DNA from: an uncultured Candidatus Saccharibacteria bacterium
GTDB lineage: Bacteria; Patescibacteriota; Minisyncoccia; Phycocordibacterales; PALSA-1337
Direction of reading: 5' to 3'
Assembly (NCBI GenBank): GCA_964416985.1
Contig: CAYQFS010000001.1
Location: 83,413 to 147,412 of the forward strand
DNA: 64,000 nucleotides
Shown: piece after piece, positions 25,356 through 56,305 of the stretch
Layout: each line of letters begins with the position of its first letter
Position numbering within the stretch: position 1 is the first letter of the stretch
The notes under the pieces: generated by a model
What the model was told of the DNA's origin: nothing
Databases searched by the model: none
The model's input: only the letters and a program-made list of their open reading frames with translations
Made by a program: the position numbers and the translations under genes

Positions 25356-26147
25356 TCAGGGTTTCGGAAGGAGGATGTCCTCGACACTTTTCCTTATTGT
25401 CGGCCACCGCGAGAGTAGTTGAACTAGTTGCAGTTGCTGTTCTGGTGTTGCTTCAGATTTGTAGCCGATTGTCTCAACCCATTTCCAGAACGCCCCCTGA
25501 AGCAGGGGCAAGAAGTCCTGATTGCAAAAAAGGAACAGAGAGCATTTCTCTCGGACTTCTGCAACGGATTTTGCTCCCATTCCCTGAATTTGTTGAAGCG
25601 TCCGTGGTGACAACACACATACCTGCCAGACATACTCGAAGTTTCCTCGACAGAGGCAGTTGGCGGCACGTGACTGTAATTCCAATTCATTTACCGATGA
25701 TGCAAGTAGCGTTGCCACACCGTTAATCGTGTTTTTGTTAATGGCTAGGCCTAGGAATTTCTCGCACACTATTCTTCCCATAATCTCTGGTCGACAGTGT
25801 GAATGAAGTCCGGCATCACATCCCGCCTCAATCATTGATTGACGATTGTCCACCCGGCAGCTCACTGCAACCATCTTTAAGTTTGGGTTTTTTTGTCTCA
25901 CTGAGCTAATGATCTGTCGGACTTCCTGTTCTGAAAATCCCAAATCCCAGACAATGAGTATGACGTCGTAGCAAGCCTCCCTGATCTGATTAATGAGGCT
26001 CGCTATTTTTTCATGAGCGTCGCACTTGAACAGTTCAGTCTGACAGCGTTCATCATTGCCAACAGCCGACATCACTTTTTGACTACAGTCCTCTTCCTGT
26101 CCTACAGAGAAATGCCTTAGGCTAACTACTAAAATCTTCTTTTCCAT
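25356..26147 (-). CDS. Cys-rich protein: degenerate CheY-like receiver domain fused to RNA polymerase alpha-subunit C-terminal-domain-like HhH domain
   Basis: N-terminal segment with receiver-like spacing: KILVVS, then YDVILIVWDLGF (Asp at the phospho-acceptor position), then KMVAVSC. C-terminal segment: LELQSRAANCLCRGNFEYVWQVCVLSPRTLQQIQGMGAKSVAEVREK aligns with E. coli alpha-CTD [48 protein letters not shown]. 16 Cys in 263 aa. Confidence 0.6.
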   Translation of the reverse strand: MEKKILVVSLRHFSVGQEEDCSQKVMSAVGNDERCQTELFKCDAHEKIASLINQIREACYDVILIVWDLGFSEQEVRQIISSVRQKNPNLKMVAVSCRVDNRQSMIEAGCDAGLHSHCRPEIMGRIVCEKFLGLAINKNTINGVATLLASSVNELELQSRAANCLCRGNFEYVWQVCVLSPRTLQQIQGMGAKSVAEVREKCSLFLFCNQDFLPLLQGAFWKWVETIGYKSEATPEQQLQLVQLLSRWPTIRKSVEDILLPKP

Positions 26148-26259: not shown

Positions 26260-26675
26260 TGGTGGAGATGGGCGGAATTGAACCGCCGTGCAGTTGAAGT
26301 TTCATGATGCTTCTACAATGTGTAGCTAGCTTTAGCGAGATCTCTCTCTTTTGACCTGCATGCTTGAAAGCAAGCAAAACACATGCAGGCGATTCCCCAA
26401 GTTTCGGATTACAAGCAGGGAAGAGAATGTAATCCACGTCGGAGGTTATATCAACTCATCACAGCTTCCGATGCGAAGTGAGAGCCGTCGCCTAAGGCAG
26501 AGTTTAAGCTGCGTAAGCGAAAGCAAGGTCCTGTGTTCCAAAATATGGAGACACGAGAGACTTTACCTTTGCAACTGATGATTTTGCAGTTACGGTGTCC
26601 GTTAGTTTTAAGAGGTAACGGAACTCTACATTGCGCGGCATGAAGGGACCCCAGCTGTCGAGGCCTTTCATCCCC
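26260..26675 (-). ncRNA. ssrA: tmRNA (SsrA)
   Basis: 5' end GGGGAUGAAAGGCCUCGACAGCUGGGG (compare E. coli GGGGCUGAUUCUGGAUUCGACGGG). 3' end GGUUCAAUUCCGCCCAUCUCCACCA, with the acceptor pairing 5'-GGGGAUG with CAUCUCC-3'. Internal tag ORF ends ...LAFAYAA-UAA. smpB is immediately upstream on the same strand. Confidence 0.85.
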
Positions 26676-27761: not shown

Positions 27762-30700
27762 ATGAAACATTCCTGGATCAAGAAGATTTTTATCGCATCC
27801 TTTTTCATAGTAGTTTTCTTGTCTCCTCTTAGTAATGTACGTGCTGATATTACCTCGAGCTTTCTTGGTCACTGGACATTTGATACTACTAACACGAATT
27901 GGGGCACTAATACAACATCTGACACATCCAGTAATGGGTATAATGGTACATTAACTAATTTTTATTCTGCGACGAGTACTGTTGTTGGGCAGCTCAATCA
28001 AGGTCTCTATTTTGATGGTGTCGATGATAAAGTAAGTCTCCCAACATCAGTTGTTGGCAGTAGTATAACACTTTCTGCATGGATAAAGCCTGCGGTGGTT
28101 AACAAGGAGCAACGCATCATTAACTACCATAACCGGTATCGACTCGAACTTTCTGATAATGGAAAACTATACTGTGCATTTCATACTGTAAATCAGTCAT
28201 GGAACTTCTGTAGTACTCTCGGAAATACCACACTTGTAGCGAATCGTTGGTACCACGTCGCTGTAACATACGATGGATCGTCGACGTATACGTATTATCT
28301 AAATGGAGTCGCAAACGGAAGTAACTCATCTCAATTTACTGGGGCATTAACTGGAGGGTCACTTACTCCTTGTATTGGTGATGCCTGTGGAGATGGAAAT
28401 ACTACAGCTTTTTTTAAGGGATCAATGGATGATGTCAACATCTACAGTCGAGCCCTTTCTTCTGGCGATATGCTTGAGTTGTATACTTCTGCTTTTGTAC
28501 CCACCATCACTACCTCCGATGCATCTTCCATCACCGCTACAACTGCCACTCTCAATGGTTCGATAGATGTTGCCAATGCCGCCTCCTCAACAATCCGAGG
28601 ATTTGCTTATGGGACGAGCGCAACACTTTCTACGGTAATAGCTACTACAACCGAGAGTGGGATATTTGATTCGGGAGCATTTACTTCAGCTGTTTCCGGT
28701 CTTACAGGAAATACGACATATTATGTACGAGCATATGCGTCAAATGCTACATCGACAGGGTATGGAACTATCAAATCTTTCACCACCTCTGTGGCTGTGG
28801 TTGTCCCTACAGTGACAGTTCAGTCGGCTTCCTCAATTACTGCAACTATGGTTACCCTGAATGGGACAATGACGTCTGATGGGAATGCTTCCTCTACTGT
28901 ACGAGGCTTTGCATATGGGACAGATACTAGTTACAGTCTGGGAACAACTACCGAGAATGGTACCTTTGCAATAGGTTCTTTCACAAGTAGCATCTCTTCT
29001 CTCACGTGTAATACGACGTATCATGTGCGTGCATACTCTACAAATTCGGCGGGAACAGGCTTTAGCGGCGATCAGACATTTTTAACAAGCCCATGTGTTC
29101 CAGGAAATCCAACCTCCGTTGTTGCTGTAGCGGGGAATGGTCAGGCGACTATATCATTTACTATTCCTGGAAGTGATGGGGGGTCTACGATTTTGTACTA
29201 CACTGCATCTTCGACCCCAGGAACCCAAGCTGGTTACGGGACTTCTCCGATTACAGTCTCGGGACTTTCAAATGGAACCACATATACATTTACTGTAACT
29301 GCTACAAATGCAGTTGGGACAAGTACCGCAAGTTCTGCATCAAACTCGATAACTCCTTCTACAACACCCACCATCACTACCTCCGACGCATCTTCCATCA
29401 CCGCTACAACTGCCACTCTCAATGGTTCGATAGATGCTCTCGGGGGAGCTTCTGTTACTGATCGTGGTTTTGAATGGGGTACTAATAATGCTTATGGAAA
29501 TAGTATTTCAACAAACGGCAGTTACTCGGTAGGAACATATAATGCAGATCTTTCTGGTTTGACGTGTAATACTGAATATCATGTACGAGCATTTGCAACT
29601 AACTCTGTCGGGACTGCTTCATCAAGCGATTCTTCTTTTACAACTTCTGCCTGCCCGGTATCATCTACTCCTTCCTCAAGCAGCGGTAGTTCTTCGGGCG
29701 GTGGGGGGAGATCAGGATTTGTTCAAATACTTCCCACCCCTTCTCTTGTTACAAAAGTTTTTGATATCATTACCCCTTCTTTTCTAAAGCCTAAAGTAGT
29801 TCCTGCCGCTGTTGCTCCCATCATAGAAATTAAAAACCCTCTTGACGGGTCGTGGAAACTTCTTCCTCAAGAGCCAGTGAAATCTTTTGTCCTTGCTCCA
29901 TTACCTGAGGAAGTGCTCGTTCTCACTGCCAAGTTTCCTGAATTAGAAAAGACGTTCAAAACACTTGGTATTACCAAGGTAAGTGATCTCGGTAAACTTA
30001 AAAATGCAAGTATCAATCTACCCAACTTGAGTGCACGAGTAGGTGCTAATGGGGCAGTTCCAATTGGTTCTTTAACTCCAGATCAGAAGAAGATGCTTCC
30101 GACCGAAGTTGTTTTTGCAAGATCGGGTACTGTTGATTATAACGTAGGACTTACTGTAAATAACGGAAATCCTGAACAGCAGGTAAAAACAATTGTTGGA
30201 AAGCCACTCGATCTTGCCATTAAAGCCGATAAACCCGTTAAAGAAATAAAAGGTTACTTGACCGTGAAAAACATCGAAAGAAAGTCTGTTTCAAGGCCTA
30301 TCCCTTCCGATTCAATGCTTGCTTCAGTCGTTGCTGCGATATTACCAACACCACATCCACGGACTGAAGGGGTTGAAGTAGAACAAAAACTTGTTCTTCA
30401 GGAATTTAATTATAGTGATGATAATAATGACGGGATTTACACTGCCCAAGTTCAGACTCCCTTACTTAAGGGTGAATACGATATTATTTCAGTAATGCAG
30501 TATCGGGATATTAAATTAGGTTCCAAAGAGTTTCATTTGACAACTGTCGTTGATCCGGAAGGATATATTTATCGTGATAGTGGTAATGGAGAAGAGACTC
30601 GTATTCATGACGCTACTGTCACTATTTTTCAAAAGAATCTTAGTACATCAGATTTTGAATTATGGCCGGCAAATAATTTCCAACAGACAAATCCTCAATT

Positions 30701-30893
30701 GACGGATAAGAGCGGAACTTACTCGTTCCTTGTTCCTGAAGGTATTTACAAAATTACTGTATCTGCACCTGGTTACGAGGATTATATAGGCAGTGAGTTC
30801 TCTGTTGTACAGGGTGGGGGAGTACATACAAACATTGTTCTCAAGCCGAAAGGTGTGTGGAATCGTTTCTTGCGTTCAATAAAATTAAATTAG
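27762..30893 (+). CDS. large secreted/surface protein: signal peptide, LamG (concanavalin A-like) domain, ~5 tandem Fn3-like repeats, C-terminal carboxypeptidase-regulatory-like beta-sandwich
   Basis: 1043 aa. N-terminal signal peptide (MKHSWIKKIFIASFFIVVFLSPLSNVRA). LamG-like block (...YFDGVDDKV...LSAWIKP...WYHVAVTYDG...). Repeated ~95-aa units with SSITATTATLNGSID...YYVRAYASNA..G.G..SFTTS. G/S-rich linker. C-terminal DATVTIFQKN...GTYSFLVPEGIYKITVSAPGYEDY. Confidence 0.75.
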   Translation: MKHSWIKKIFIASFFIVVFLSPLSNVRADITSSFLGHWTFDTTNTNWGTNTTSDTSSNGYNGTLTNFYSATSTVVGQLNQGLYFDGVDDKVSLPTSVVGSSITLSAWIKPAVVNKEQRIINYHNRYRLELSDNGKLYCAFHTVNQSWNFCSTLGNTTLVANRWYHVAVTYDGSSTYTYYLNGVANGSNSSQFTGALTGGSLTPCIGDACGDGNTTAFFKGSMDDVNIYSRALSSGDMLELYTSAFVPTITTSDASSITATTATLNGSIDVANAASSTIRGFAYGTSATLSTVIATTTESGIFDSGAFTSAVSGLTGNTTYYVRAYASNATSTGYGTIKSFTTSVAVVVPTVTVQSASSITATMVTLNGTMTSDGNASSTVRGFAYGTDTSYSLGTTTENGTFAIGSFTSSISSLTCNTTYHVRAYSTNSAGTGFSGDQTFLTSPCVPGNPTSVVAVAGNGQATISFTIPGSDGGSTILYYTASSTPGTQAGYGTSPITVSGLSNGTTYTFTVTATNAVGTSTASSASNSITPSTTPTITTSDASSITATTATLNGSIDALGGASVTDRGFEWGTNNAYGNSISTNGSYSVGTYNADLSGLTCNTEYHVRAFATNSVGTASSSDSSFTTSACPVSSTPSSSSGSSSGGGGRSGFVQILPTPSLVTKVFDIITPSFLKPKVVPAAVAPIIEIKNPLDGSWKLLPQEPVKSFVLAPLPEEVLVLTAKFPELEKTFKTLGITKVSDLGKLKNASINLPNLSARVGANGAVPIGSLTPDQKKMLPTEVVFARSGTVDYNVGLTVNNGNPEQQVKTIVGKPLDLAIKADKPVKEIKGYLTVKNIERKSVSRPIPSDSMLASVVAAILPTPHPRTEGVEVEQKLVLQEFNYSDDNNDGIYTAQVQTPLLKGEYDIISVMQYRDIKLGSKEFHLTTVVDPEGYIYRDSGNGEETRIHDATVTIFQKNLSTSDFELWPANNFQQTNPQLTDKSGTYSFLVPEGIYKITVSAPGYEDYIGSEFSVVQGGGVHTNIVLKPKGVWNRFLRSIKLN

Positions 30894-31343: not shown

Positions 31344-33512
31344 TTACTGATGGCCAAGGAGCCATGAAGGTAGGGCGGTACCTCGTACTGCCTGCTTTCG
31401 ATTAATTTCTTCAACCGCGACCTCTTTCTTCACTCTTTCAACAATGCGGTCATCGATGAATGTTTTTTCTCCGACGAGATACTCGGGGAGACCGAAGGGG
31501 TTGAAAGGTAATGGAGGAGCATCTGGGTGCGTCAATGAATATTTTGACACCGTTGGGTCACCATTTTCCTTACCATCCAGAATCGTACCAATTTCTATTA
31601 GCTGTTGGCGAGCCATTTTTCGTGACTCGGATTGAGATGATTTTAGTGTGTAGCTTTGTTGCATCATCATCTGTTGTCCCGATTGGTATGAACCACTTGG
31701 CCAGACTGTTCGGAAGAATAGTGTCTGGCGATTGTTAACTGCGATTGCGGCTACCGCTTTTCGCAGCGGTCCTACAACAACCGTTGCCTCGACTGTCCAA
31801 GGACCATCGATGCTCTCTGCGACAAGTACGTCGTTCGTGGTATTTGGGATTGAGTGTACCACCAGATAGTTCGTCGTCCGGTCGAGAGTGAGTCCGTTGT
31901 AGTTGATAGGATCATCGTACACGTAGTTGGTGATTGCTGGCCCAAATGGCCCTTCAACAAGGGGATACCATTCCCGACTCAGATTCCAGAACGTGTTCGA
32001 ACTGGCTTTGTTGAGGGCGAAACCTTCACCGACAGCAAGTTGTGGCATTGTTGGCCACCACGAGTTACTTGTATACATGTAATTCGTGTATGTCCCGCTT
32101 GTGGGAAGGTATTGGTATAAGATGTCACCTTCAGTCACGGGTAACTTAAAACTCTCAGGATTTCCTGCCCGTGGATAAGGATATGACAGAATACTTTCGT
32201 GGTCGAGGATTTCACGTCCTATTCCTCCTTGTAAAACACGTCCTGCAAATGTGACAGAGATAGTGCTTCCTGAGGGGTTCGAAACCAGAGCTGCTTCTCC
32301 TGCAACAAGTTTGTCATTAGGGATAGTCCAGTTTGTTCCATCCCATATGTTTGTCGTCCATGTAGACCCGTACGACTTTTCAACCCTGCTTCCCGCAGGT
32401 AACTTGTAGAAGAGTTTCTTAATTCGAGGATCCATCACCGAAAACTGATTTGCGACAAGTGCTTTCTTGCCTGCAGCGATGGAAACCGTGTAGTACCCAA
32501 TAATATTCGAGACATCATTGGTTGATCTTATCCTGAAGTACAGGTTACTCGCTCCACCACTATAAACGTTCAGGGACATGATACCGTTTGTGGTAGAGTT
32601 TGCTGAACTTGATATTGTCGTCGACACTATAGTCCAATCTTGGGAGAGCAGATTGGTCTTTGATTCAAGGATGTAGGTTGTGCCTTCCGTTACCCATCCG
32701 AGTTTCAATGTCAGTAACTCATTTTGCCCAACAACATTTACTCCTTTAGGCAGACCTTGCTGCCATAAGCTAATTGTGTGTTTTTGAATTCCTATTGCTG
32801 GCTGAGCAAAGACATTTGTCACGATTATTGCAAGTGGGTTAGTACTTACCACTTTCACATCCCACGTTGCGATACTTGTATTTGAAGCTTTGTACGCTGT
32901 GGTTGCTGAGCCGTTTGTCCCTTTTACTGTAAAGGCAGCAAAAGGCCGACTGAGATGATCCATAAAAGGATCGTATAGTATGCTCACTGTCGCTTCGTTA
33001 GTTACTGATAAGCCGAAGCCATCAGGTGAATTGCCTAGACCCACATCACTTGAACCTCCAGATGAGTTATTTGTGGATGCTGCAATTTCCATGAAGTTTA
33101 ATGGAGGGTAGTACGGGTCCCCTGGACCAGAAGGAATGTGACCGCCATAGACGACCGGTGGGTCTGGCTGCATCCAGTCGTCGAATATACCACCGAAGTC
33201 TGGATCAAATGATGGTATGATCGGTGGCGGTTCATTGTTTGTGTAATTTGGGTATGATGGTTTTCCCGAAGGGAAATCGGGAGGAAAGGTGGGTGGTTCG
33301 TATGGAGGGCTATTGGTTTTTCCACTATTGATCTCGTCGATCAGGTTACTCGAAACTTCAGAGATCAAGTTTGTGAAGTCGTTGTTTAGTGTGTTGGTGA
33401 CGCCCACGTAGGGATCTGTGTATGTGGGGACACCTAGTGCCTGATTTAACCAACCAGTAACAATTAATGTTACCACAATGCTCATGAGAGCGTTCAACGG
33501 ATTTCGTTTCAT
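31344..33512 (-). CDS. large secreted hypothetical protein, Pro-rich N-terminal region
   Basis: Start chosen at MKRNPLNALMSIVVTLIVTGWLNQALG (signal peptide) with an AAAGGAAG RBS; ORF-track start 33650 rejected. 723 aa. PPYEPPTFPPDFPSGKPSYP low-complexity region, then S/T/N-rich beta-rich body. No known catalytic motif. Confidence 0.6.
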   Translation of the reverse strand: MKRNPLNALMSIVVTLIVTGWLNQALGVPTYTDPYVGVTNTLNNDFTNLISEVSSNLIDEINSGKTNSPPYEPPTFPPDFPSGKPSYPNYTNNEPPPIIPSFDPDFGGIFDDWMQPDPPVVYGGHIPSGPGDPYYPPLNFMEIAASTNNSSGGSSDVGLGNSPDGFGLSVTNEATVSILYDPFMDHLSRPFAAFTVKGTNGSATTAYKASNTSIATWDVKVVSTNPLAIIVTNVFAQPAIGIQKHTISLWQQGLPKGVNVVGQNELLTLKLGWVTEGTTYILESKTNLLSQDWTIVSTTISSSANSTTNGIMSLNVYSGGASNLYFRIRSTNDVSNIIGYYTVSIAAGKKALVANQFSVMDPRIKKLFYKLPAGSRVEKSYGSTWTTNIWDGTNWTIPNDKLVAGEAALVSNPSGSTISVTFAGRVLQGGIGREILDHESILSYPYPRAGNPESFKLPVTEGDILYQYLPTSGTYTNYMYTSNSWWPTMPQLAVGEGFALNKASSNTFWNLSREWYPLVEGPFGPAITNYVYDDPINYNGLTLDRTTNYLVVHSIPNTTNDVLVAESIDGPWTVEATVVVGPLRKAVAAIAVNNRQTLFFRTVWPSGSYQSGQQMMMQQSYTLKSSQSESRKMARQQLIEIGTILDGKENGDPTVSKYSLTHPDAPPLPFNPFGLPEYLVGEKTFIDDRIVERVKKEVAVEEINRKQAVRGTALPSWLLGHQ

Positions 33513-33729
33513 TTGCTTCCTTTCATCTGACCTGTTTTGGTTGTACCCCCTTGTAAAGGAAAGACCATCGGGGGGTAATGCGATGGTCGGCTGGCTATCA
33601 AATAACAAAATAACCAATCTAAAATTGAGGGTATCATAAAATAAGTCCATCGACCATTGACAGATTGGGAAACATGTCCTCCGTTGGAAAACTGTTTTCT
33701 TTCATTTTCCCCAATTTATCGTATAATCA

Positions 33730-35658
33730 ATGCCTATGAAGAAACACAATGACCCGCAAGGAGAAAAGGGAAAAAAGGGACAGAAGAAGCCCTCGAAACT
33801 TCGCTTTTTGAATACGATTTCCACAGCAATTCTCATCCTTTTCCTCATCACTGGATTTTATTCAATTCTTGTCGACCAGACGGCTGAGAAAAATCTTATT
33901 CCACTTTCAGAACTTGTTCACGATGTTGGTATGGGTAAAGTCACAGCTATTACTGTTCAGGGAAATACGCTTATTGCAGAATACGAAGACAAGGCGACCA
34001 AGATTTCCAAAAAGGAAACCGACGCTTCTGTCACAGAGACATTTACAAGTTATGGATTGACTCCTGAAAAGTTGAACGCAGTTAAAATTTCGATTGAAGG
34101 ACCGAGTGGGTTCTGGTTCTGGGTCGGACAGCTTGCACCCTTCATTGCACCTCTTTTCTTTTTAGCGCTCATTATTTGGTTTTTGACGCGGCAAGTGAGA
34201 GGTCAGGGAGGACTTCAGGCCTTCTCATTTGGTCAGTCGAAGGCCCGCATCACATTGCCAGACGACAAAAAGCAGAAAGTAACATTCAAGGATGTTGCTG
34301 GAGCAAAAGAAGCAAAGCAGGAACTTTCAGAAATCGTGGATTTTTTGAGAAATCCAAAAAAGTTTTTGGAAATTGGTGCGGTTATTCCAAAAGGAATTCT
34401 TCTCATGGGAGCTCCAGGAACTGGAAAGACCCTGCTCGCGCGAGCGGTGGCTGGAGAAGCGGGTGTGGCGTTCTTTGCTATTTCTGGATCTGAGTTTGTA
34501 GAAATGTTTGTGGGAGTTGGAGCATCGAGAGTCCGGGATCTCTTTAAAATTGCAAAGGAAAGTGCACCAGCAATTATTTTTGTTGATGAAATTGATGCAG
34601 TTGGGCGAGTGCGAGGGACGGGAGTTGGGGGAGGAAATGATGAGAGGGAACAGACATTGAACCAGATCCTTGTTGAGATGGACGGATTCGAGCCAAATGA
34701 GAAAGTGATTGTCATGGCTGCAACAAACAGACCTGATGTTCTTGATCCAGCACTTCTTCGACCAGGGCGATTTGACCGTCGGGTGACTATTGACCTTCCT
34801 GATCGAAATGATCGCGAGGAAATTTTGAAAATACATTCCGCAAAGAAACCTTTTGCTGAAGATGTCGCCCTTCGAGTCATTGCCGAGAGAACTCCGGGAT
34901 TTTCTGGTGCCGACCTCTATTCTCTTATGAATGAAGGAGCGATTCTTGCTGCTCGGGAAAATAGGACAAAAGTCTCTCAGTATGATCTCATTCGCGCTAT
35001 TGAAAAAGTAATGCTCGGGCCTGAGAGGAAAAGTCATCTTTTGTCTAAAAAAGAGAAAGAAATTACTGCGTATCATGAAGCAGGTCATGCTCTCGTTGCC
35101 TCAGTTCTTCCATTTGCTGATCCAGTTCACAAGATTTCAATTATTTCTCGGGGACGGGCTGCTGGATATACTTTGCACCTTCCTCTCGAAGATCGTAAGA
35201 TGCAATCAAAGAGGGAATTTCTCGATGACATCGCTGTCTCTCTCGGAGGCTACGTCGTGGAAAAAATGATGTTTGGAGATGTCACTACCGGCCCTTCAAA
35301 TGATCTCCAGGTTTCAACGGCTCTCGCTCGTGACATGGTTACGAAATATGGAATGTCAGAAAAGATCGGAGTCCTTGCTCTCGAAGGTTCTGGAGGTCGG
35401 GCGATGTTTGGAAAGGGAGTGGAAGACAGGGAATATTCTGAAAAAGTTGGAGCTGATATCGACAGTGAAGTCGCTCGTATTATGAAAGAAGGGTTTGAGA
35501 AAGCAGAAAAGATTGTGACTGAAAATAAAAAGGCCCTCGACGCTATTGCCCGAAGACTTGTCGAAGTCGAGACGATCGAAAGAGAAGAGTACGAGTCAAT
35601 CATCATTGCTCATGGGATTCAGCCAAAGAAAAAGCTCGACATTGAACATCAGTCGTAA
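33730..35658 (+). CDS. ftsH: ATP-dependent zinc metalloprotease FtsH
   Basis: N-terminal TM, AAA+ Walker [19 protein letters not shown] zinc site. Confidence 0.97.
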
Positions 35659-35678
35659 TTTTTTGTCTGGCCGTTTAA

Positions 35679-36587
35679 TTGCTTACGATGTCTTTCATTA
35701 AAAAATCATTTGTGTGGATTGTGCTCATTGTGATGATGGGCTTATGGAGTTACCAGTATTTTGTCATAAACGCCCCGTGTGCCCAACCCATCTACTATCA
35801 TCTCGGAGTATTTGATACGAGATTCAACATTAGCAAAGTAGATTTTCTTTCTGCTGTTGATGAGGCGACTCTCATTTGGGAAAAGGCCCTTGGCAAGGAT
35901 CTTTTTTCTCCGAGTACAGAGGGGAGGCTTGATATAAATTTGGTTTACGACGATCGTCAAGCTCTCGCCGAAAAGAACCGTACGCTTACAGCACAGGTCG
36001 ACACACAAAAAGTTTCGGCTGATGCAATCAAGGCGCAATTTCTATCTCTCCAAAATCGCCTTGATGAAAGAAAAAAAGAATACGAAGCGCTCGTTTCTGA
36101 GTTCGAGAAGGCACAGGATTCCTACAACACCGAAGTTCGTTTATGGAATCGAAAGGGGGGTGCTCCGAAAGATGAGTATGAAAAATTGAATAACGACAAG
36201 GATGCCCTCGTTGCTTTCCAAGCTAGAGTTGAAACGAAACGCCTCGAGGTTAATGCTCTCGTTGATGAAATAAATGCTCTTGTCAAAAAGTATAATTATC
36301 TCGTCGGAACGGTCAATTCTACTATTTCGACAATTAACAAAGATGCAGGGAAGGAGTTTGAGGAAGGGGAATTTATTTCTGACAGAAATGGAGAAAGAAT
36401 AAATATTTATGAATTTGGAAACCACCAGGTTCTCGTCAGAGTTCTTGCTCATGAGTTTGGACATGCCTTGGGACTTGATCACAATGATAATCCAGATTCT
36501 ATTATGTATTACCTGAATAACAGCAAAAATATGAAATTGACGGCTGAGGACACAGCGGCCGTGAAGGCGGTGTGTGGGGTGGAGTGA
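35679..36587 (+). CDS. membrane-anchored matrixin-like (metzincin, M10-like) zinc metalloprotease with coiled-coil linker
   Basis: N-terminal TM helix. Long coiled-coil region (LQNRLDERKKEYEALVSEFEKAQ...). C-terminal HEFGHALGLDHNDNPDSIMYY, i.e. HExxHxxGxxH plus Met-turn. Confidence 0.7.
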   Translation: MLTMSFIKKSFVWIVLIVMMGLWSYQYFVINAPCAQPIYYHLGVFDTRFNISKVDFLSAVDEATLIWEKALGKDLFSPSTEGRLDINLVYDDRQALAEKNRTLTAQVDTQKVSADAIKAQFLSLQNRLDERKKEYEALVSEFEKAQDSYNTEVRLWNRKGGAPKDEYEKLNNDKDALVAFQARVETKRLEVNALVDEINALVKKYNYLVGTVNSTISTINKDAGKEFEEGEFISDRNGERINIYEFGNHQVLVRVLAHEFGHALGLDHNDNPDSIMYYLNNSKNMKLTAEDTAAVKAVCGVE

Positions 36588-36634: not shown

Positions 36635-36708
36635 GCGCCTTTAGCTCAGTTGGTTAGAGCACAGAGCTTATACCTCTGGGGTCCTTGGTTCGAATCCAAG
36701 AAGGCGCA
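36635..36708 (+). tRNA. tRNA-Ile (anticodon UAU)
   Basis: Cloverleaf: acceptor GCGCCTT/AAGGCGC; D-arm GCTC-AGTTGGTTA-GAGC; anticodon stem CAGAG/CTCTG with loop CT-TAT-AC; T-arm CTTGG-TTCGAAT-CCAAG; discriminator A. CCA not encoded. Confidence 0.85.
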
Positions 36709-36710
36709 CA

Positions 36711-48410: not shown

Positions 48411-49520
48411 ATGAGTCTTGGCAGTCTATTTTCCTTTTTTTCCAAAAAAGACCGAAGCGTCCTTGGTATCGACATCGGTTCTTCAGCTATAAAGATCGTC
48501 CAGATCAAGCGTAAGCGGGGAAGGGCTGTTCTCGAGACGTATGGAGAGCTTGCTCTCGGTCCTTACGCCGGCATCGAAGTTGGTCGTTCAACAAGTCTTG
48601 CTAATGATAAGTTAATTGAGGCTCTCAAGGATATTCTTCGCGAAGCAAAAACTACGACAGTTTCAGCGGGAGTAGCACTACCTCTTTCATCGAGCCTCAT
48701 TTCCTTCATTACCCTCCCTCAAGTCCCTGATAATAAAATGGCAGAAGTCATTTCGATTGAAGCTCGAAAGTATATTCCTGTACCGATGAATGAGGTAATG
48801 CTCGACTGGTCTCCAATTCCTCGCGAAGAAGCCTTCAATACGGATGATGATCCAAAAAAAGACATAAAACAGCAGACTCAAGATGTGCTTATTGTTGCGA
48901 TTCATAACGAATACATAAGCAACTACCAAACAATCATGGCCGGGACAGGAATTTCTCCCTCATTTTATGAGATTGAACTCTTCAGTTCCATTCGTGCGGT
49001 GGTCGATCAGGGAATTCAGGCAGTGATGGTTATTGATATGGGTGCTCATGCTACAAAGCTTTATATTATCGAGCGTGGAATACTTAGATCATCACATATC
49101 ATCAACAAGGGCGGGCAGGACATCACTCTTGCTCTCTCAAAATCGTTGAGTATTAGTGTAAATGAAGCGGAAAATATGAAACGGGCTTACGGGCTCAAGG
49201 GAGGACCTGAGTACAAAGAGCTTACGGAAATTGTGACGGTCAATCTCGACTATGTTTTCTACGAAGCAAATGCAACCCTTCTTAATTATCAGAGAAAATC
49301 AATGAAAAATATTTCGAAAGTCATTCTCACAGGAGGGGGAGTGCTTCTCAAGGGATTTACTGATCTTGCAAAGATAAGTTTCCAGACGGAAGTGGTGTAC
49401 GCAGATCCATTTGGGAAATTGGAGACCCCCGCTTTTCTTGTCGAGCAACTCTCACAAGCTGGACCTGAATTTGCTGTGGCGATAGGCGCTGCCCTGAGGA
49501 GACTTTCTGAAGTTCAATAG
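48411..49520 (+). CDS. pilM: type IV pilus assembly protein PilM (actin-like ATPase fold)
   Basis: LGIDIGSSAIKIVQI... is a PilM hallmark. 369 aa. Confidence 0.88.
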   Translation: MSLGSLFSFFSKKDRSVLGIDIGSSAIKIVQIKRKRGRAVLETYGELALGPYAGIEVGRSTSLANDKLIEALKDILREAKTTTVSAGVALPLSSSLISFITLPQVPDNKMAEVISIEARKYIPVPMNEVMLDWSPIPREEAFNTDDDPKKDIKQQTQDVLIVAIHNEYISNYQTIMAGTGISPSFYEIELFSSIRAVVDQGIQAVMVIDMGAHATKLYIIERGILRSSHIINKGGQDITLALSKSLSISVNEAENMKRAYGLKGGPEYKELTEIVTVNLDYVFYEANATLLNYQRKSMKNISKVILTGGGVLLKGFTDLAKISFQTEVVYADPFGKLETPAFLVEQLSQAGPEFAVAIGAALRRLSEVQ

Positions 49521-49578
49521 ATATACACAGGATGGGGAATGCGGTCGCACCCCTTCTGTACTATAATTAGGGAGAATC

Positions 49579-50292
49579 TTGTATTCCCAAAGCCTTTTAA
49601 TAATGGAAACCAAATTTCAAACATCGTTCATTCCAAAGAAACCTCTCATCACTGGTGAGCGGCCACGAAGTCCTGTTGGAGTGAGTATTTTTATGGGACT
49701 TGCCGTCGTTCTCTTTGTCGCGTCTCTTGCGGGTGCAGGCTTTGTCTTTGCTTGGAAAAGTCTTCTTATTGACAGTCAGAAAAAATACCAGATCGAACTC
49801 ACTGAGCAGGAGAAAAGATTTAAACCAGAAGAAATAGAACGCCTCAAAAAGAAGAATATTCGCATTGATTTTGCGAAGGAACTTCTAAAGAATCATCTTT
49901 CTGTTTCTGAAATCTTTACCATCATTGGTGGATTGACGATCGATGGTGTTCGTTTTGCGAGCCTCGACTACTCTGGCCCTGATCCGAAGTCCCAGAATGG
50001 AGGAAACCTAGCAAAAATTTCAATGAAGGGATTGGCAAATAGCTTCTCGAGTATTGCGTGGCAGTCAGATGTTTTTGGAAATTCACAAAAATATGGAACG
50101 AACAAGATCTTGAAGAATCCAGTTCTCTCGGATCTTGCGGTCGATGCGACGGGAAATGTCGGTTTCTCTTTTGCGGCAAACATTGATCCAGCTGACATTT
50201 CATATGAGAAAACTTTGGTCGAAAAACTTCAGTCGGAAGGACTCATTGTTCCTCCTCCTGCAAGTGCTGGAGCTTCATCAACACCACAATAA
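49579..50292 (+). CDS. pilN: PilN-like pilus assembly protein
   Basis: Single N-terminal TM plus periplasmic domain, following pilM. Confidence 0.6.
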   Translation: MYSQSLLIMETKFQTSFIPKKPLITGERPRSPVGVSIFMGLAVVLFVASLAGAGFVFAWKSLLIDSQKKYQIELTEQEKRFKPEEIERLKKKNIRIDFAKELLKNHLSVSEIFTIIGGLTIDGVRFASLDYSGPDPKSQNGGNLAKISMKGLANSFSSIAWQSDVFGNSQKYGTNKILKNPVLSDLAVDATGNVGFSFAANIDPADISYEKTLVEKLQSEGLIVPPPASAGASSTPQ

Positions 50293-50295
50293 TTT

Positions 50296-50865
50296 ATGAG
50301 CAAAAACATTACAGCACTTATACTCATAGTTCTCGCCATAGGGACTTACTTTACATTTACCAAGAACAAGCTCAATGAATTGGCTGCTATTAAGGCTGTA
50401 AATGCCGAGTACAAGACAGCTATTGATAATGCAAATCGCCTCGTTGCTATTCGAGAAAAGGTGGTAAAGGATGACATCAATATCTCAGAATCGGATAATA
50501 TTCGTCTCGCAAAGATTCTTCCAGACAATGTTGACAATGTTCGCCTTATTATCGATGTAAAAGACAATATTGCAGCTCGCCACGGACTTTTTTTGAAGGG
50601 AATAAAGACGAGCTCTCCGACCGACGTTGCTCAGAATTCAAGTGAAAACAGGGGGGTTGCCGAGGCCATTGCAAATGGATATGGGACAGTTAGTCTCTCT
50701 TTCTCTGTTACGACAAATTACCAAACCTTCCTCGATTTCATGCAGGATCTCGAGGCGAGCCTCCGCATCATGGATATTTCCAAGCTCAACGTGATTGCGA
50801 GTGAGGGAGGAAACGGTTCGTATGATTTTAATGTCGAGGTGAAGACCTACTGGCTCAAGCAATAA
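50296..50865 (+). CDS. pilO: PilO-like pilus assembly protein
   Basis: N-terminal TM, coiled coil, periplasmic domain, in conserved synteny. Confidence 0.55.
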   Translation: MSKNITALILIVLAIGTYFTFTKNKLNELAAIKAVNAEYKTAIDNANRLVAIREKVVKDDINISESDNIRLAKILPDNVDNVRLIIDVKDNIAARHGLFLKGIKTSSPTDVAQNSSENRGVAEAIANGYGTVSLSFSVTTNYQTFLDFMQDLEASLRIMDISKLNVIASEGGNGSYDFNVEVKTYWLKQ

Positions 50866-50870
50866 CACAT

Positions 50871-51215
50871 ATGTCATCATCAAAGAAAAATAGTATCGTA
50901 ATTATCATTCTTGTAGTACTTGCAGGGTTTGCTTACTTTTACTTTACAGGAGATCCGACAGACCCATCTGCTCTTGCTCCGGAGGCATCTCCTGAGGCTG
51001 CGGCCTCGGTCGCCGAGGCCGCCCATGTGCTTTCTCTCTTGAACCAGATTCAGTCAATTCACATTGATACAAAGTTTTTTGAGTCGACGGTTTTCAAATC
51101 ACTTGTCGATAACATGGTCGTTGTCCCTGAACAAAATGTTGGAAGGCCAAATCCCTTCGTTGCTGTCCCGGGAGCATTTGCTGCGCCAGCTCAGCCTTCG
51201 GCTCCGCGACGCTAG
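50871..51215 (+). CDS. small membrane-anchored protein in pil operon (PilP-like?)
   Basis: N-terminal TM, Ala/Pro-rich linker, short C-terminal domain. Confidence 0.4.
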   Translation: MSSSKKNSIVIIILVVLAGFAYFYFTGDPTDPSALAPEASPEAAASVAEAAHVLSLLNQIQSIHIDTKFFESTVFKSLVDNMVVVPEQNVGRPNPFVAVPGAFAAPAQPSAPRR

Positions 51216-51227
51216 CCTTATTTATAT

Positions 51228-52943
51228 ATGAGCATAACAGACGTACTTCTCAGTAAAAATCTTATCTCAAAAGATGATATTCGGGAGATCAAGAGAAGAA
51301 TGGGAGAGGGAGATTCTCTCGATCAGATTCTCATTGAACGTGGGGTAAAAGTAGAGGACATCCTTGCTGCACGAGGAGAATTTTTGAACATCCCTGTCCG
51401 AAGTCTCGGAGATACGTCGGTCCCCTTTGAGGCACTCGAATATATTCCTGAGGAATCGGCCGCACACTATCGTTTTGTTCCAATCGGAATTAAAGAAGGG
51501 ATGCTCGAGGTTGGAATCGTGGATCCTGATAATATCGAAGCCCGTGACGCCCTCAATTTCATTGCTGCAAAGAACAATATTCCTTATAAGATTTATATCA
51601 TCAGTCTCGATGATTACAACAAGGTCATTGAATCCTACAAAGGTCTTTCAGGAGAAGTTTCAAAGGCGCTTTCTGAGCTTGAGACGGTTCTTTCGGTCGA
51701 CACTGAAGGAACAATTGATACAAAAAAATCGAAAACAGATCCAAAGTCCGAAGCCTTCATCATTGAGGACGCTCCTGTTGTAAAGATTGTGGCGACTATC
51801 GTTCGATATGCAACCGAAGGAAATGCTTCCGACGTTCATATTGAGCATATGCACGACAAAGTCCGTGTTCGTTTCCGTGTTGATGGAACATTGAACACAA
51901 GCCTCGTTCTTCCTCCACAGGTTCACAGTGCAGTCATTGCTCGTATCAAGGTGCTTTCGAACATGAAGCTTGATGAAAAGCGAAAGCCTCAGGACGGACG
52001 ATTCTCCGCGCGAATCGATGGAAGAAAAATAGACTTCCGTGTTTCGACATTCCCAGCATACTACGGTGAAAAGATCGTGATGCGAATCCTCGATCAGGAA
52101 AAAGGTGTAAAGAAACTCGACGACATGGGTCTCACAAAGAAAAATGTCGATCTCATTCGGGAAGCTATCGGCCGCCCATATGGGCTCATTCTCATAACTG
52201 GTCCTACAGGATCCGGAAAGTCTACAACTCTCTATTCGATGCTCAATGAGGTCGACAAGGAAGGTTCAAATGTACTTTCCCTCGAAGATCCGATCGAATA
52301 TAACATGGAAGGCGTGAGTCAGTCGCAAGTTCATCCTGAAATTGGTTATACATTTGCATCTGGACTAAGAACGACACTACGTCAGGACCCAGACATTATC
52401 ATGGTGGGTGAGATCCGAGATAAAGAGACGGCACAGCTTGCGGTACAAGCTGCTCTTACCGGTCACCTCGTGTTCTCGACACTTCACACCAACAACGCTG
52501 CTGGAGTTATTCCTCGTCTCATTGACATGGGAGTTGATCCCTACCTCATCGCACCAACACTCATTCTTGCAGTTGCTCAGCGTCTCGTAAGTCTCCTTTG
52601 TCCTGGTGGAGGAAAGCCGATACCTGTTGAGGGAAGTATCAAACTTCTCATTGACAGGCAGTTTGCCGATATTCCTGAACAATTTAAGAAGGACATTCCA
52701 TTTACTGATACAGTTTACCAGGCTTCACCAACTCCCGATTGCCCAAAGGGAATTAGAGGAAGAACTGCTGTGTTTGAAGGTTTCAAGATGGATAAGGATA
52801 TTGAAGCGGCGATTCTCAAATCTCCGACAGAGCTTGAAATCTCAAGAATTCTTCGCCAAAAAGGAATGCTTACTATGAGAGAAGATGCCATGCTCAAGGC
52901 TTTCCAAAAGCTCATTCCTTTTGAGGAGGTTAACAAGTTGTAA
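51228..52943 (+). CDS. pilB: type IV pilus assembly ATPase PilB (GspE family)
   Basis: Walker A GPTGSGKSTT; Asp and His boxes; tetracysteine region (CPGGG...C). Confidence 0.92.
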   Translation: MSITDVLLSKNLISKDDIREIKRRMGEGDSLDQILIERGVKVEDILAARGEFLNIPVRSLGDTSVPFEALEYIPEESAAHYRFVPIGIKEGMLEVGIVDPDNIEARDALNFIAAKNNIPYKIYIISLDDYNKVIESYKGLSGEVSKALSELETVLSVDTEGTIDTKKSKTDPKSEAFIIEDAPVVKIVATIVRYATEGNASDVHIEHMHDKVRVRFRVDGTLNTSLVLPPQVHSAVIARIKVLSNMKLDEKRKPQDGRFSARIDGRKIDFRVSTFPAYYGEKIVMRILDQEKGVKKLDDMGLTKKNVDLIREAIGRPYGLILITGPTGSGKSTTLYSMLNEVDKEGSNVLSLEDPIEYNMEGVSQSQVHPEIGYTFASGLRTTLRQDPDIIMVGEIRDKETAQLAVQAALTGHLVFSTLHTNNAAGVIPRLIDMGVDPYLIAPTLILAVAQRLVSLLCPGGGKPIPVEGSIKLLIDRQFADIPEQFKKDIPFTDTVYQASPTPDCPKGIRGRTAVFEGFKMDKDIEAAILKSPTELEISRILRQKGMLTMREDAMLKAFQKLIPFEEVNKL

Positions 52944-52981
52944 TGGAGAGGTGGTAACGACTCCTGTGATATAATAAACAC

Positions 52982-53386
52982 ATGGAAATTTCTGAAACAA
53001 CAAAACCACGATCAATCCTCTTCGTCGATGATGACAAATTTCTCCTCGATATGTATGCTTTGAAGTTTTCAAAGAATAATTTTGAGGTAAAGACTGCGGA
53101 GGGTCCGGAAGCTGCCCTCAAGATCATCCATGACGGCTTTGAACCCGATATTCTTCTTGTCGACGTTGTCATGCCTGGCATGGACGGTATCGAATTTCTT
53201 TCAATCATTCGAAAAGAGGAGCTTCTCAAGAAATCAATCATCATTATGCTTACAAATCAGGGTCTTCCTGACGATATTGCTCGGGCAAAGAAGCTCAATG
53301 TCGACGGATACATCATCAAGGCCACAACCATTCCATCCGAAGTCCTTGAGGAGGTAAATAAGATCGTTCGATCTACCAAAAAATAA
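52982..53386 (+). CDS. single-domain response regulator (CheY-like receiver)
   Basis: ILFVDDDKFLLDM..., phospho-acceptor Asp in LLVDVVMPGMDG, conserved Thr/Lys region. Confidence 0.85.
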   Translation: MEISETTKPRSILFVDDDKFLLDMYALKFSKNNFEVKTAEGPEAALKIIHDGFEPDILLVDVVMPGMDGIEFLSIIRKEELLKKSIIIMLTNQGLPDDIARAKKLNVDGYIIKATTIPSEVLEEVNKIVRSTKK

Positions 53387-53403
53387 TCTAATCAACAAAC
53401 AGC

Positions 53404-54462
53404 ATGGAATATAAAAAAGAAATTGAGGAACTTGTAGCGACAGTTGTCCATGAGGGCGCTTCCGATCTCCATCTTTCGGAGGGGAGGAATCCCCTTATTC
53501 GTGTTTCTGGTGGGCTTATACCTCTTATAAAGAGGCCAGTTCTTACCAATACTGACATGCTTGGATTTATCCAGGAGTTTTTGAGTGAAAAGAATAAGAA
53601 GATTCTCGAAACTGCACGATCGGCTGATTTTTCATATGGACTTCCCGACGTCCGCTTTCGAGGAAATGTTTTTTATCATCAAAACCAACTTTCCATTGCT
53701 CTCCGTCTTATTCCTAAAAGCATACGGACACTTGCCGAGCTCAATCTTCCTCCAATTCTCGAGTCATTTGCCCGAAAACAGCAGGGATTTTTCCTCTGCG
53801 TGGGGCCAATCGGCCAAGGAAAGACGACAACTCTCGCCGCACTTATTGAAATAATAAACCAGACTCGAACAGAGCATATTCTGACCATTGAAGACCCTGT
53901 CGAGTATCTTTATGAATCCAAAAAGTCTATTATTGACCAGAGAGAAGTGGGGACGGATGCTCCGGATTTTAACAGTGCGCTTGTGGCAATGTTCCGAGAG
54001 GATATTGACGTTTGTCTCGTGGGAGAAATGAGAGACACCAACACTATTTCCACAGCTGTTACAGCTGCCGAGACCGGTCACCTCATCTTTTCCACACTTC
54101 ACACAAATAATGCCGCCCAGACCATCAACCGTATTATCGACTCGTTTCCACCAGCCCAGCAGGATCAGATCCGCGTTCAGCTTGCTGGATCTCTCACGGG
54201 TATTTTCTCTCAGCGTCTTGTCCCTCGAATCTCAGGAGGTCTCGTTCCAGCATACGAGCTTCTCATCAACAACTCAGCTGTGGCAAACCTCATTCGGGAA
54301 AAAAGAATTCATGAAATTAACACCGTCATAGAGACGAGCTCAAAGGACGGGATGGTTGACATGAATCGATCTTTGGCCGAGCTTGTGCGGGCGGGGGAGA
54401 TTACGGTCGAAAGTGCATATTTGAATTCCCTCAATCCAAAAAATCTCGAAAGAATTATTTAA
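53404..54462 (+). CDS. pilT: twitching motility ATPase PilT
   Basis: Walker A GPIGQGKTTT. PilT-specific AIRNLIRE-like motif (AVANLIREKR). Confidence 0.9.
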   Translation: MEYKKEIEELVATVVHEGASDLHLSEGRNPLIRVSGGLIPLIKRPVLTNTDMLGFIQEFLSEKNKKILETARSADFSYGLPDVRFRGNVFYHQNQLSIALRLIPKSIRTLAELNLPPILESFARKQQGFFLCVGPIGQGKTTTLAALIEIINQTRTEHILTIEDPVEYLYESKKSIIDQREVGTDAPDFNSALVAMFREDIDVCLVGEMRDTNTISTAVTAAETGHLIFSTLHTNNAAQTINRIIDSFPPAQQDQIRVQLAGSLTGIFSQRLVPRISGGLVPAYELLINNSAVANLIREKRIHEINTVIETSSKDGMVDMNRSLAELVRAGEITVESAYLNSLNPKNLERII

Positions 54463-54471
54463 TACACACAT

Positions 54472-55680
54472 ATGCTTTTTAATTACCAAGCAGTTGATGC
54501 GACAGGAGCGGAGAAAAATGGATCAATTGATGCGGTGAATGTTGATATTGCAATCGGGTCTCTCCAGCGCAGAGGTCTTGTCATCACCTCTATTCACGAG
54601 GATAGCAAGGGAGGGGGACTTCTCAGTATGAACCTCGCCTTTTTTGATCGCGTTTCAAACAAAGACGTGGTCATTCTCTCTCGACAGCTCGCAACTCTTT
54701 TTCAAGCACAAGTTTCTGCTCTCCGCATTTTCCGTCTTCTTTCCGGTGAAGCTGAGAACAAGGTTCTTGGGAAAAAGCTTGCAACTATCGCAGACGATCT
54801 CCAGGCCGGAACCTCCATTTCTGCCTCTCTTGCAAAACATCCAAAAGTTTTCTCTGAATTTTATGTAAGTATGGTCAAAGCTGGAGAAGAGTCGGGAAAG
54901 CTCAATGAAACATTCAACTACCTCGCTGATTATCTCGACAGAACCTACGAACTCGCCGGAAAAGCCAAGGGAGCCCTCATTTATCCTGCTTTCGTCATCA
55001 TAACTTTTGTAACCGTTATGATCCTCATGTTTACGGTCGTTATTCCAAAGATCAGCGCAATTCTCGTTGATTCTGGTCAGGATATTCCTATCTATACAAA
55101 AATAATCCTCGGTATGAGCAATTTCCTTGTATCGTATGGTTTTCCTCTCCTCATGGTTGTCATTGTCGGAGGCTTCTTTCTCTTTAGATACACACAGACT
55201 CCATCTGGGACAGAGGCTCTTGACCGAGTGAAGCTCGGCATTCCATACTTGAGCACTCTCTTCCGTAAACTTTACCTCTCTCGTCTAGCTGACAACATGA
55301 ACACTATGCTTGTTTCTGGTATTCCTATGGTTCGCTCTCTCGAACTTACTTCATCAGTTATCAACAATGTTATTTACAAGAGAATCATTTCTGATGCCGT
55401 TGAGGCAGTTAAAGGTGGAAAAGCAATCTCCGAGGCCCTCTCAGGAAATACCGAAATTCCAGGAATTATGATCCAAATGATGAAAGTGGGGGAGGAGACA
55501 GGAGAACTCGGCAGTATTTTGAAGACCCTTGCAGCCTTTTATGCTCGTGAAGTGACAACTGCCGTCGACGCTCTCGTGGATCTTATCGAACCCTTGATGA
55601 TCGTCCTTCTCGGAGCTGGTGTGGCTATTCTTCTCGCTTCCGTCCTTGTTCCTATCTACAATATTGCTTCTGCACAGTAA
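54472..55680 (+). CDS. pilC: type IV pilus inner-membrane platform protein PilC (GspF family)
   Basis: Two GspF repeats, 3 TM. 402 aa. Confidence 0.9.
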   Translation: MLFNYQAVDATGAEKNGSIDAVNVDIAIGSLQRRGLVITSIHEDSKGGGLLSMNLAFFDRVSNKDVVILSRQLATLFQAQVSALRIFRLLSGEAENKVLGKKLATIADDLQAGTSISASLAKHPKVFSEFYVSMVKAGEESGKLNETFNYLADYLDRTYELAGKAKGALIYPAFVIITFVTVMILMFTVVIPKISAILVDSGQDIPIYTKIILGMSNFLVSYGFPLLMVVIVGGFFLFRYTQTPSGTEALDRVKLGIPYLSTLFRKLYLSRLADNMNTMLVSGIPMVRSLELTSSVINNVIYKRIISDAVEAVKGGKAISEALSGNTEIPGIMIQMMKVGEETGELGSILKTLAAFYAREVTTAVDALVDLIEPLMIVLLGAGVAILLASVLVPIYNIASAQ

Positions 55681-55724
55681 GGTAAACGGTTATCCACACG
55701 TTGTATACCCAGTTTTTAAGGGGG

Positions 55725-56299: not shown

Positions 56300-56305
56300 T
56301 ATCGA

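Follow-up and report, generated by a model that had tools for sequence, protein, structure and literature searches.

A Patescibacterial Matrixin-Like Metzincin with an N-Terminal Membrane Anchor and a Catalytic Domain Probably Split by a Coiled-Coil Hairpin

Introduction

The gene that lies directly downstream of ftsH in a 64,000-nt stretch of DNA from an uncultured Candidatus Saccharibacteria bacterium (contig CAYQFS010000001.1; the whole stretch is termed the window) raises the question of what kind of protease it encodes, how this protease is arranged at the membrane and what it might act on. In a preliminary description made from the sequence alone, the product of the open reading frame (ORF) 35679..36587 (+) was taken for a membrane-anchored, matrixin-like metzincin. 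Matrixins are among the best-studied proteases, and their hallmarks are an S-loop with structural zinc and calcium and a prodomain with a cysteine switch. The analysis reported here supports, with a probability of about 0.72, the conclusion that the window protein is a zinc endopeptidase of the matrixin/snapalysin branch of the metzincins, anchored in the membrane with type II topology, devoid of a prodomain, built with a split catalytic domain and belonging to a family restricted to Patescibacteria.

Results and Discussion

Gene and Sequence Identity

The ORF 35679..36587 (+) was confirmed as real. Its mechanically called start is the TTG at 35679, and the likely start is the ATG at 35688, three codons inside, since the 100%-identical database protein (P0001) consists of 299 aa and the homologues begin at the aligned Met. 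The coding sequence of the split matrixin-like protease is accordingly given as 35688..36587 (+), 299 aa plus stop.

The metzincin signature noticed at the outset (HExxHxxGxxH plus Met-turn) is present as HEFGHALGLDH and SIMYY, contained in the segment HEFGHALGLDHNDNPDSIMYY (aa 255-275, nt 36450-36512). In the hidden Markov model search a Pfam Peptidase_M10 match of 44.3 bits was obtained, above the curated gathering score of 24 (E = 2.2e-11), which spans only aa 236-295, that is, profile positions 102-157 of 159; metzincin and coiled-coil matches in NCBIfam were all sub-threshold. The best matches among PDB sequences were matrix metalloproteinase (MMP) 8 and other MMP catalytic domains. Searched with the single sequence, MMP-8 was found with E = 9.5e-6 in two collinear pieces, residues 48-90 aligning with MMP-8 24-65 and residues 249-297 with 111-162. 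When a family profile built on 60 sequences was used, the same profile that served for structure prediction, the overall E value for MMP-8 was 5.9e-9; profile positions 246-293 aligned with MMP-8 105-155 at 29.8 bits, and positions 34-90 with MMP-8 9-62, covering strand I, helix A and strands II-III, in a weak match of 7.1 bits (conditional E = 1.6e-4). The matrixin-like identity proposed earlier is thus borne out by both the Peptidase_M10 match and the PDB sequences.

Active Site and Missing Matrixin Hallmarks

Conservation was counted in a family alignment of 263 sequences, to which all counts below refer unless another denominator is shown. In the zinc-binding motif HEFGHALGLDH (aa 255-265, 36450..36482 (+)), residues H255, E256, G258, H259 and H265 are kept in 263/263 sequences and G262 in 229/263. 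Met273 of the Met-turn (36504..36506 (+)), eight residues past H265, is conserved in 260/263 and the following Y274 in 235/263, while D288 of helix C, which aligns with the Asp of the QDD segment of MMP-8, is found in 261/263. Outside the signature, F46 and W64 are invariant or nearly so. From these residues the window protease is predicted to be catalytically competent, and an inactive pseudoprotease was ruled out by the invariance of the catalytic ones.

Both matrixin hallmarks are missing. Instead of an S-loop with structural zinc and calcium, strands III and IV are linked in the predicted structure by a helical hairpin, and no conserved His or Cys was found in aa 88-254 of the alignment. 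Since 39/263 family members hold just three His in the whole protein, a structural zinc site of the MMP type, made of three His and one Asp, is impossible. A prodomain with the cysteine switch PRCGxPD was not found either, there being ~6-7 residues between the transmembrane (TM) helix and strand I. The Ser that follows the third zinc-binding His in matrixins is likewise replaced, position 266 being Asn in 141, Val in 61 and Thr in 19 of the 263 sequences.

Affiliation to other metzincin groups was examined by the same residues. The family lacks the HExxHxxGxxHP motif of the serralysins (M10B), as no Pro follows H265; it lacks their Met+2 Tyr ligand, position 275 being Tyr in 110/263; and no RTX beta-roll was found in the window protein by the Pfam search, its chain terminating three residues past C296. 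Nor does it agree with the snapalysins (M7), whose third zinc ligand is an Asp (HExxHxxGxxD), the corresponding ligand here being the invariant His265.

Exactly two Cys are present in 238/263 proteins. Cys31 (35778..35780 (+)) is Cys in 261/261 sequences having that column, and Cys296 (36573..36575 (+)), at the end of helix C, is conserved in 263/263. They are probably joined by a disulfide that ties the two ends of the chain to each other. Such a bond is geometrically plausible, as the N-terminal segment is a neighbour of helix C in MMP structures, for example in the Phe79 form of MMP-8 (PDB 1JAN). A role of C31 as a cysteine switch was considered unlikely, given its position four residues from strand I within a P-C-x-x-P motif and its co-invariance with C296.

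Split Catalytic Domain

The AlphaFold2 (AF2) model of the window protease, with a mean predicted local distance difference test (pLDDT) value of 94.2 and a predicted template modelling score (pTM) of 0.72, places its elements in the order TM helix (aa 2-27), strand I (35-42), helix A (50-68), strands II and III (73-75 and 81-85), helix 89-155, turn, helix 161-218, strands IV and V (227-232 and 235-240), the active-site helix B (246-260) and helix C (286-296). The metzincin fold, a sheet of four parallel strands and the antiparallel edge strand IV together with helices A, B and C, is matched by the order of the elements in this predicted model. The N-terminal half of the catalytic domain (aa 32-88, 35781..35951 (+)) would consist of strand I, helix A and strands II-III and end with Y87-D88-x-R90-Q91; the C-terminal half (aa 219-299, 36342..36584 (+)) would hold the acidic EFEEGE segment, strands IV-V, helix B, the Met-turn and helix C. 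At the entry to the hairpin D88 is kept in 259/263, R90 in 258/263 and Q91 in 263/263 sequences, and at the exit, within the EFEEGE segment, F224 and G227 in 259/263 each.

The model shows the coiled coil as two antiparallel helices folded into a hairpin, which interrupts the catalytic domain after strand III and before strand IV. The preliminary description had envisaged a purely C-terminal protease, attached to the anchor through a coiled coil of ~150 aa. A long heptad-patterned helical stretch does exist, of ~130 aa, but it is not a linker from anchor to protease, and both the AF2 model and the MMP-8 profile alignment assign aa 32-88 to the N-terminal half of the catalytic domain.

In a Foldseek search against the PDB, the window model matched MMP-3, MMP-2, MMP-11, karilysin and snapalysin with a probability of 1.0 and target TM-scores of 0.6-0.73, and the hairpin was covered by no solved structure. 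The short homologue P0145 (254 aa; AF2 pLDDT 95.7) has hairpin helices at 88-134 and 137-174, both exactly 20 residues shorter than those of the window protein, and this equal loss from each helix supports a hairpin. Its best PDB match by Foldseek was snapalysin (target TM-score 0.68-0.74, root-mean-square deviation 3.5-4.7 Å), followed by MMPs. As far as the models tell, the fold is closest to that of this minimal enzyme.

Hairpin Tip and Asn Ladder

The hairpin covers aa 89-218 and would be roughly 85-100 Å long at 1.5 Å per residue. Its outgoing helix (aa 89-155, 67 residues, 35952..36152 (+)), modelled with pLDDT 91-98, carries aromatic residues at heptad position 'a' (111, 118, 125, 132, 139, 146 and 153), and the AF2 return helix (aa 161-218, 58 residues, 36168..36341 (+)) follows after a turn at aa 156-160 (GGAPK). 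Around this turn lies a conserved tip (aa 150-164, 36135..36179 (+)), in which V150, W153, N154, G157, G158, A159, P160 and Y164 are kept in 173-216 of the 221 tip-bearing sequences. The length of the hairpin is bimodal, ~125-135 aa in 214/256 sequences and ~85-109 aa in 42.

The return helix bears one Asn per heptad, forming a ladder of N189, N196, N203, N210 and N217 (36252..36338 (+)), which are conserved in 232, 252, 260, 258 and 260 of the 263 sequences, respectively, a degree of conservation close to that of the catalytic residues. Plotted on a helical wheel averaged over the family, this helix is strongly amphipathic at its base, where positions a, d and e are hydrophobic, and the ladder Asn fall at 'b', 104 degrees off the hydrophobic moment. 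By this geometry they would flank the buried face outside the two-helix core, so that two-helix packing alone cannot explain their invariance.

It is probably the base of the hairpin that covers the beta-sheet here, a structural task which in MMPs falls to the metal-clamped S-loop. The return helix is predicted to lead without a break to the acidic EFEEGE segment and edge strand IV; both would line the active-site cleft at its upper rim. Their MMP counterparts make up the bulge-edge element, to which the substrate backbone binds, and the hairpin base may have a part in shaping or gating the cleft on its non-primed side. The outer part of the hairpin, where the conserved tip lies, is probably an arm by which a conserved partner or substrate of the envelope is docked or positioned.

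Membrane Anchor, Topology and Substrate

The N-terminal signal-anchor/TM helix (aa 2-27, 35691..35768 (+)) is a helix in the AF2 model, and K5 and K6 precede its hydrophobic stretch, in agreement with the N-terminal anchor first described. Across the family, the start of the hydrophobic 19-mer is at median residue 6, with K or R ahead of it in 213/256 sequences; K+R average 1.57 versus 0.23 for D+E before the TM segment, and 1.18 versus 0.63 in the 15 residues after it. No small-x-small signal-peptidase motif was found at positions 27-29 of the 263-sequence alignment, and Pro30, directly ahead of Cys31, is kept in 241/263. A Pro at +1 blocks signal peptidase I, so this residue argues against cleavage by that enzyme as well as against a lipobox. 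A lipoprotein was ruled out on the same ground, a Pro rather than a lipobox residue standing before the Cys.

In 12 homologues of 357-404 aa (P0165, P0176, P0205, P0206, P0214, P0221, P0226, P0232, P0234, P0236, P0239 and P0253), a Thr/Ser-rich low-complexity linker of 60-120 aa lies between the anchor and the conserved P-C motif. Invariant Cys pairs and Thr/Ser-rich linkers are typical of exported proteins. With this linker, the proteases of the subgroup could extend far out from the membrane, in contrast to the window protein. Taken with the basic n-region and the lack of a signal-peptidase or lipobox motif, these features make the extracytoplasmic protease suggested by the preliminary description a likely arrangement, that is, an N-in/C-out anchor with an extracytoplasmic catalytic domain.

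The catalytic domain would then sit on the outer face of the cytoplasmic membrane, the gap between the membrane helix and strand I (from aa 35) being ~6 residues in the AF2 model. In MMPs both termini belong to the lower subdomain, and the upper one is topped by the S-loop; by this topology, the stapled termini would face the membrane and the rigid hairpin would project outward by ~9-10 nm. The distance from the membrane up to the active-site cleft would be a few nanometres. The substrates are most likely endogenous extracytoplasmic polypeptides near the membrane, in the processing or turnover of surface or secreted proteins, and not variable host proteins. An endogenous envelope substrate or partner is suggested because the family is highly conserved across orders, its genes occupy unlinked genomic positions and the active site would be membrane-proximal; of the whole favoured explanation this is the weakest step.

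Family Size and Distribution

A word-indexed search gave 1098 homologues at E ≤ 1e-3. Nearly all of the best 120 of them are 260-320 aa long, and the organisms named among these 120 are metagenome-assembled genomes of Patescibacteria, Parcubacteria or Paceibacterota. The names given to them are matrixin family metalloprotease, extracellular metalloprotease of the M10 family, predicted Zn-dependent protease and hypothetical protein, together with two evident mis-annotations. An exhaustive profile search returned at least 1397 clusters at 50% identity with E ≤ 1e-30, and 4093 at E ≤ 1e-3. At least 354 loci were confirmed in GTDB species genomes, the titled ones belonging to Paceibacterota, Nomura-, Taylor-, Adler-, Zambryski-, Wolfe-, Sungi-, Doudna-, Falkowbacteria and similar groups, and the family is essentially confined to Patescibacteria/Parcubacteria. 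The design had been called unusual for bacteria, which holds for the enzymes described to date, but within Patescibacteria it is common.

Two loci, L051 and L077, are titled 'uncultured Gammaproteobacteria bacterium'. These titles could reflect mis-binning, mislabelling, or a transfer from the Candidate Phyla Radiation (CPR) to proteobacteria as suggested in PMC12587646.

Relation to ftsH and Gene Neighbourhood

The gene directly upstream is ftsH (33730..35658 (+)), encoding an AAA+/Peptidase_M41 protein. The gap to the protease gene, put at 21 nt before, was counted as 20 nt to the TTG and 29 nt to the ATG (35659..35687 (+)), so that it is indeed short and between genes of the same strand; as already noted, it contains no terminator-like hairpin on the + strand. 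The same order was found in L004/L005, L007, L008, L011 and L014, where 0-53 nt separate the two genes or a few nt are shared, the M10 proteins of these relatives being 44-63% identical to the query and their FtsH 87-92%. Of the 80 GTDB species loci, 68 extend upstream by at least 2 kb. In four of the 80, ftsH is found no more than 4 kb away, and homologues of 47-49% identity occur without ftsH nearby. The adjacency is a lineage-specific gene order and not a family-wide functional link. Co-expression with ftsH, suggested in the preliminary description from this position, is therefore to be restricted: co-transcription is plausible in the window lineage, where close relatives keep the short gaps, but a general link is contradicted by the 4/80 loci.

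When the flanking ORFs of the 80 loci were called and clustered, no conserved neighbour was found, as no ORF family occurs in more than 9/80 loci. The recurrent clusters are mutually unrelated (ABC ATPase, DUF2914, deoxyhypusine synthase, membrane-anchored cyclophilin, SBP_bac_5, TPM and DUF4382), and an assignment of function by association with neighbours was dropped for that reason.

Alternative Explanations

The Pfam M10 match limited to aa 236-295, by which the domain seems C-terminal in sequence, and the heptad-patterned helices that fill aa 89-218 would fit a C-terminal protease kept at a fixed distance from the membrane on an extended coiled-coil stalk of ~150 aa, as was first proposed. 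The AF2 model, with strands I-III and helix A (aa 35-85) ahead of the coil and a tight turn at 156-160, speaks against such a stalk, as do the alignment of profile positions 34-90 with the N-terminal half of MMP-8, the loss of 20 residues from each helix in P0145 and the pre-coil residues W64, F46, D88 and Q91, which are invariant or nearly so. With the catalytic domain starting ~6 residues past the anchor and both ends of the coil plugging into it, a stalk is extremely improbable. Known M10 and M7 enzymes are secreted, and a hydrophobic segment that stands at the very N terminus behind a short basic n-region could also be the cleavable signal peptide of a soluble secreted protease. That reading is unlikely in view of the length of the hydrophobic helix (~21-26 residues), the missing conserved small-x-small at 27-29 and Pro30 ahead of the invariant Cys31, the P-C pair being no lipobox. 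It is unlikely that the enzyme is nutritional and degrades external proteins of a host or animal matrix: its catalytic domain lies within ~6 residues of the membrane in most members, the family occurs in lineages reported from groundwater, soil and lakes, and its high conservation points to a conserved substrate. Patescibacteria depend on external amino acids, which would suit a nutritional role, as would an SBP_bac_5 oligopeptide-binding gene within 4 kb in 7/80 loci, although this association is weak. Animal matrix proteins have moreover been argued to be possible targets of bacterial MMPs (Parsons and Fournier 2025, PMC12587646).

A functional partnership with FtsH, in which an operon-encoded pair of proteases would act in membrane protein quality control from opposite faces of the membrane, could be read from the shared strand, the 29-nt gap without a terminator and the retention of the pairing (0-53 nt gap or overlap) although the M10 proteins are just 44-63% identical. 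Its occurrence in only 4/80 species loci, the equally close homologues (47-49%) without ftsH and the absence of a family-wide conserved neighbour among the 80 loci make it very unlikely. The hairpin itself leads to two further proposals, both held to be improbable. According to one, the enzyme would remodel the cell wall or surface layer under the control of its coiled-coil arm, which would either gate the active site or take up a signal from a partner, as in EnvC, PcsB and RipC. An enzyme on the cell's own surface yet without a prodomain, a return helix leading straight to edge strand IV, and a conservation of the tip motif and the Asn ladder that is close to that of the active site, the ladder being off the core positions, would all be in keeping with this; to our knowledge, no metzincin cuts peptidoglycan, FtsEX or cell-wall genes are not consistently adjacent, the tip is lacking in 16% of the members, and the coil of EnvC and PcsB is N-terminal whereas here it is inserted. 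According to the other, the hairpin would act as a rigid antenna, ~10 nm long, in place of zymogen control, making the enzyme a mechanically or allosterically gated, ruler-type metzincin specific to Patescibacteria. The tip W-N-x-x-G-G-A-P may then touch a component of the wall, the S-layer or a partner cell far from the membrane; the Asn ladder, whose period of ~10.5 Å is close to three residues of extended peptide or one disaccharide of a glycan strand, may bind an extended polymer; and movement of the return helix may shift edge strand IV and so gate or guide catalysis. Two observations weigh against the favoured explanation of an anchored extracytoplasmic protease with a docking hairpin: the positive-inside signal is moderate, the net charge before the TM segment exceeding that after it in 149/256 sequences, and the tip is absent from 42/263 sequences, the short-hairpin subfamily, so that a tip-dependent function is not universal.

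Comparison with Known Systems

The enzyme would work as a matrixin does, and its catalytic core is homologous to that of the matrixins (M10A/PF00413; MMP-8, karilysin of Tannerella forsythia), with which it shares HEFGHxLGLxH with Gly after Phe, the Tyr after the Met of the Met-turn, the Asp of helix C and the fold of five strands and three helices, besides the best sequence and fold matches. The family differs from them in having no cysteine-switch prodomain, in the exchange of the S-loop with structural Zn/Ca for a coiled-coil hairpin of 95-130 aa, in the Asn, Val or Thr in place of Ser after the third His, and in the added N-terminal membrane anchor and N-to-C Cys pair with its predicted disulfide. 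With snapalysin of Streptomyces caespitosus (M7; PDB 1KUH, 4HX3) it has in common a minimal metzincin domain without the structural-zinc S-loop. Snapalysin is secreted and soluble and has no helical insertion, whereas the window family has the anchor, the helical insertion and the invariant His as third ligand.

A precedent for a module inside a matrixin catalytic domain is given by the gelatinases MMP-2 and MMP-9, in which three inserted fibronectin type II repeats form a substrate exosite; that insert has another fold and lies between strand V and helix B, and the gelatinases keep the S-loop. The membrane-type MMPs (MT1-MMP and others) resemble the window family as matrixin domains tethered to the cell surface and acting pericellularly. 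They are furin-activated zymogens with a C-terminal TM or glycosylphosphatidylinositol anchor after a hemopexin domain, whereas the window family is anchored N-terminally and has neither hemopexin domain nor prodomain. EnvC (M23), PcsB (CHAP) and RipC (NlpC/P60) are extracytoplasmic hydrolases in which coiled-coil arms of ~100 Å regulate the catalytic domain. Their likeness to the window family is a functional analogy only, the catalytic folds being unrelated and their coil N-terminal; regulation by FtsEX is documented for them, and no such partner is indicated here.

Other Features of the Window

On its 3' side the protease gene is directly followed by a tRNA-Ile gene (36635..36709 (+), ARAGORN) with the anticodon TAT (UAU) in the anticodon loop cttatac, and recG is convergent. 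Most bacteria read AUA with a lysidine-modified CAU tRNA, and a genomic UAU anticodon is uncommon. Just upstream of ftsH lie the genes of two putative surface proteins, one of 768 aa, Pro-rich and without a Pfam match (31344-33650 (-)), the other of 1043 aa with Laminin_G_3 and fn3 domains (27762-30893 (+)).

The window as a whole is a typical segment of a small Patescibacteria genome, with a ribosomal operon, transfer-messenger RNA (tmRNA), large surface proteins, NrdDG and a type IV pilus cluster. The latter (48411-59959 (+)) looks complete and comprises PilM, PilO, PilB-like and PilT-like ATPases, PilC, a prepilin peptidase and three pilins with N-methyl motifs; at locus L006, a pilM/pilO cluster lies ~2 kb from the protease homologue. 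A gene for a class-I S-adenosylmethionine methyltransferase (13392-14249 (-)) is placed inside the spc operon of ribosomal protein genes, which is otherwise on the plus strand, between the L5 and L6 genes. The tmRNA gene (26260-26675 (-)) specifies the tag peptide AKSSVAKVKSLVSPYFGTQDLAFAYAA and is adjoined by a 263-aa ORF (25356-26147 (-)), whose sole Pfam match is the C-terminal domain of the RNA polymerase alpha subunit.

Conclusions

A well-supported, Parcubacteria-centred CPR clade has been reported in a tree of MMP homologues (Parsons and Fournier 2025, PMC12587646), and very probably it is the same family as that of the window protease. That study is a phylogeny of the alignable MMP core; the anchor, the coiled-coil insertion and the absent prodomain go unmentioned, its text contains none of the words 'coiled', 'transmembrane' and 'insertion', and according to its authors function has been tested for no bacterial MMP. 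Among the texts found by full-text literature searches, none describes the anchor, the inserted hairpin, the lost S-loop and prodomain or the Asn ladder. Already known is the automated annotation as a matrixin-family metalloprotease; the architecture, common to more than 1000 relatives, is apparently undescribed.

If the arrangement proposed here is correct, a very large bacterial branch retains the matrixin active site yet loses both matrixin hallmarks, and the metzincin core would be shown to tolerate a large structural replacement beside the edge strand that binds the substrate. The family adds a deep and diverse bacterial clade to the debate on whether MMPs originated in bacteria or in animals. 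It would also be one of the few widely conserved, predicted surface-exposed enzymes of the Patescibacteria, whose cell-surface biology and host dependence are poorly understood.

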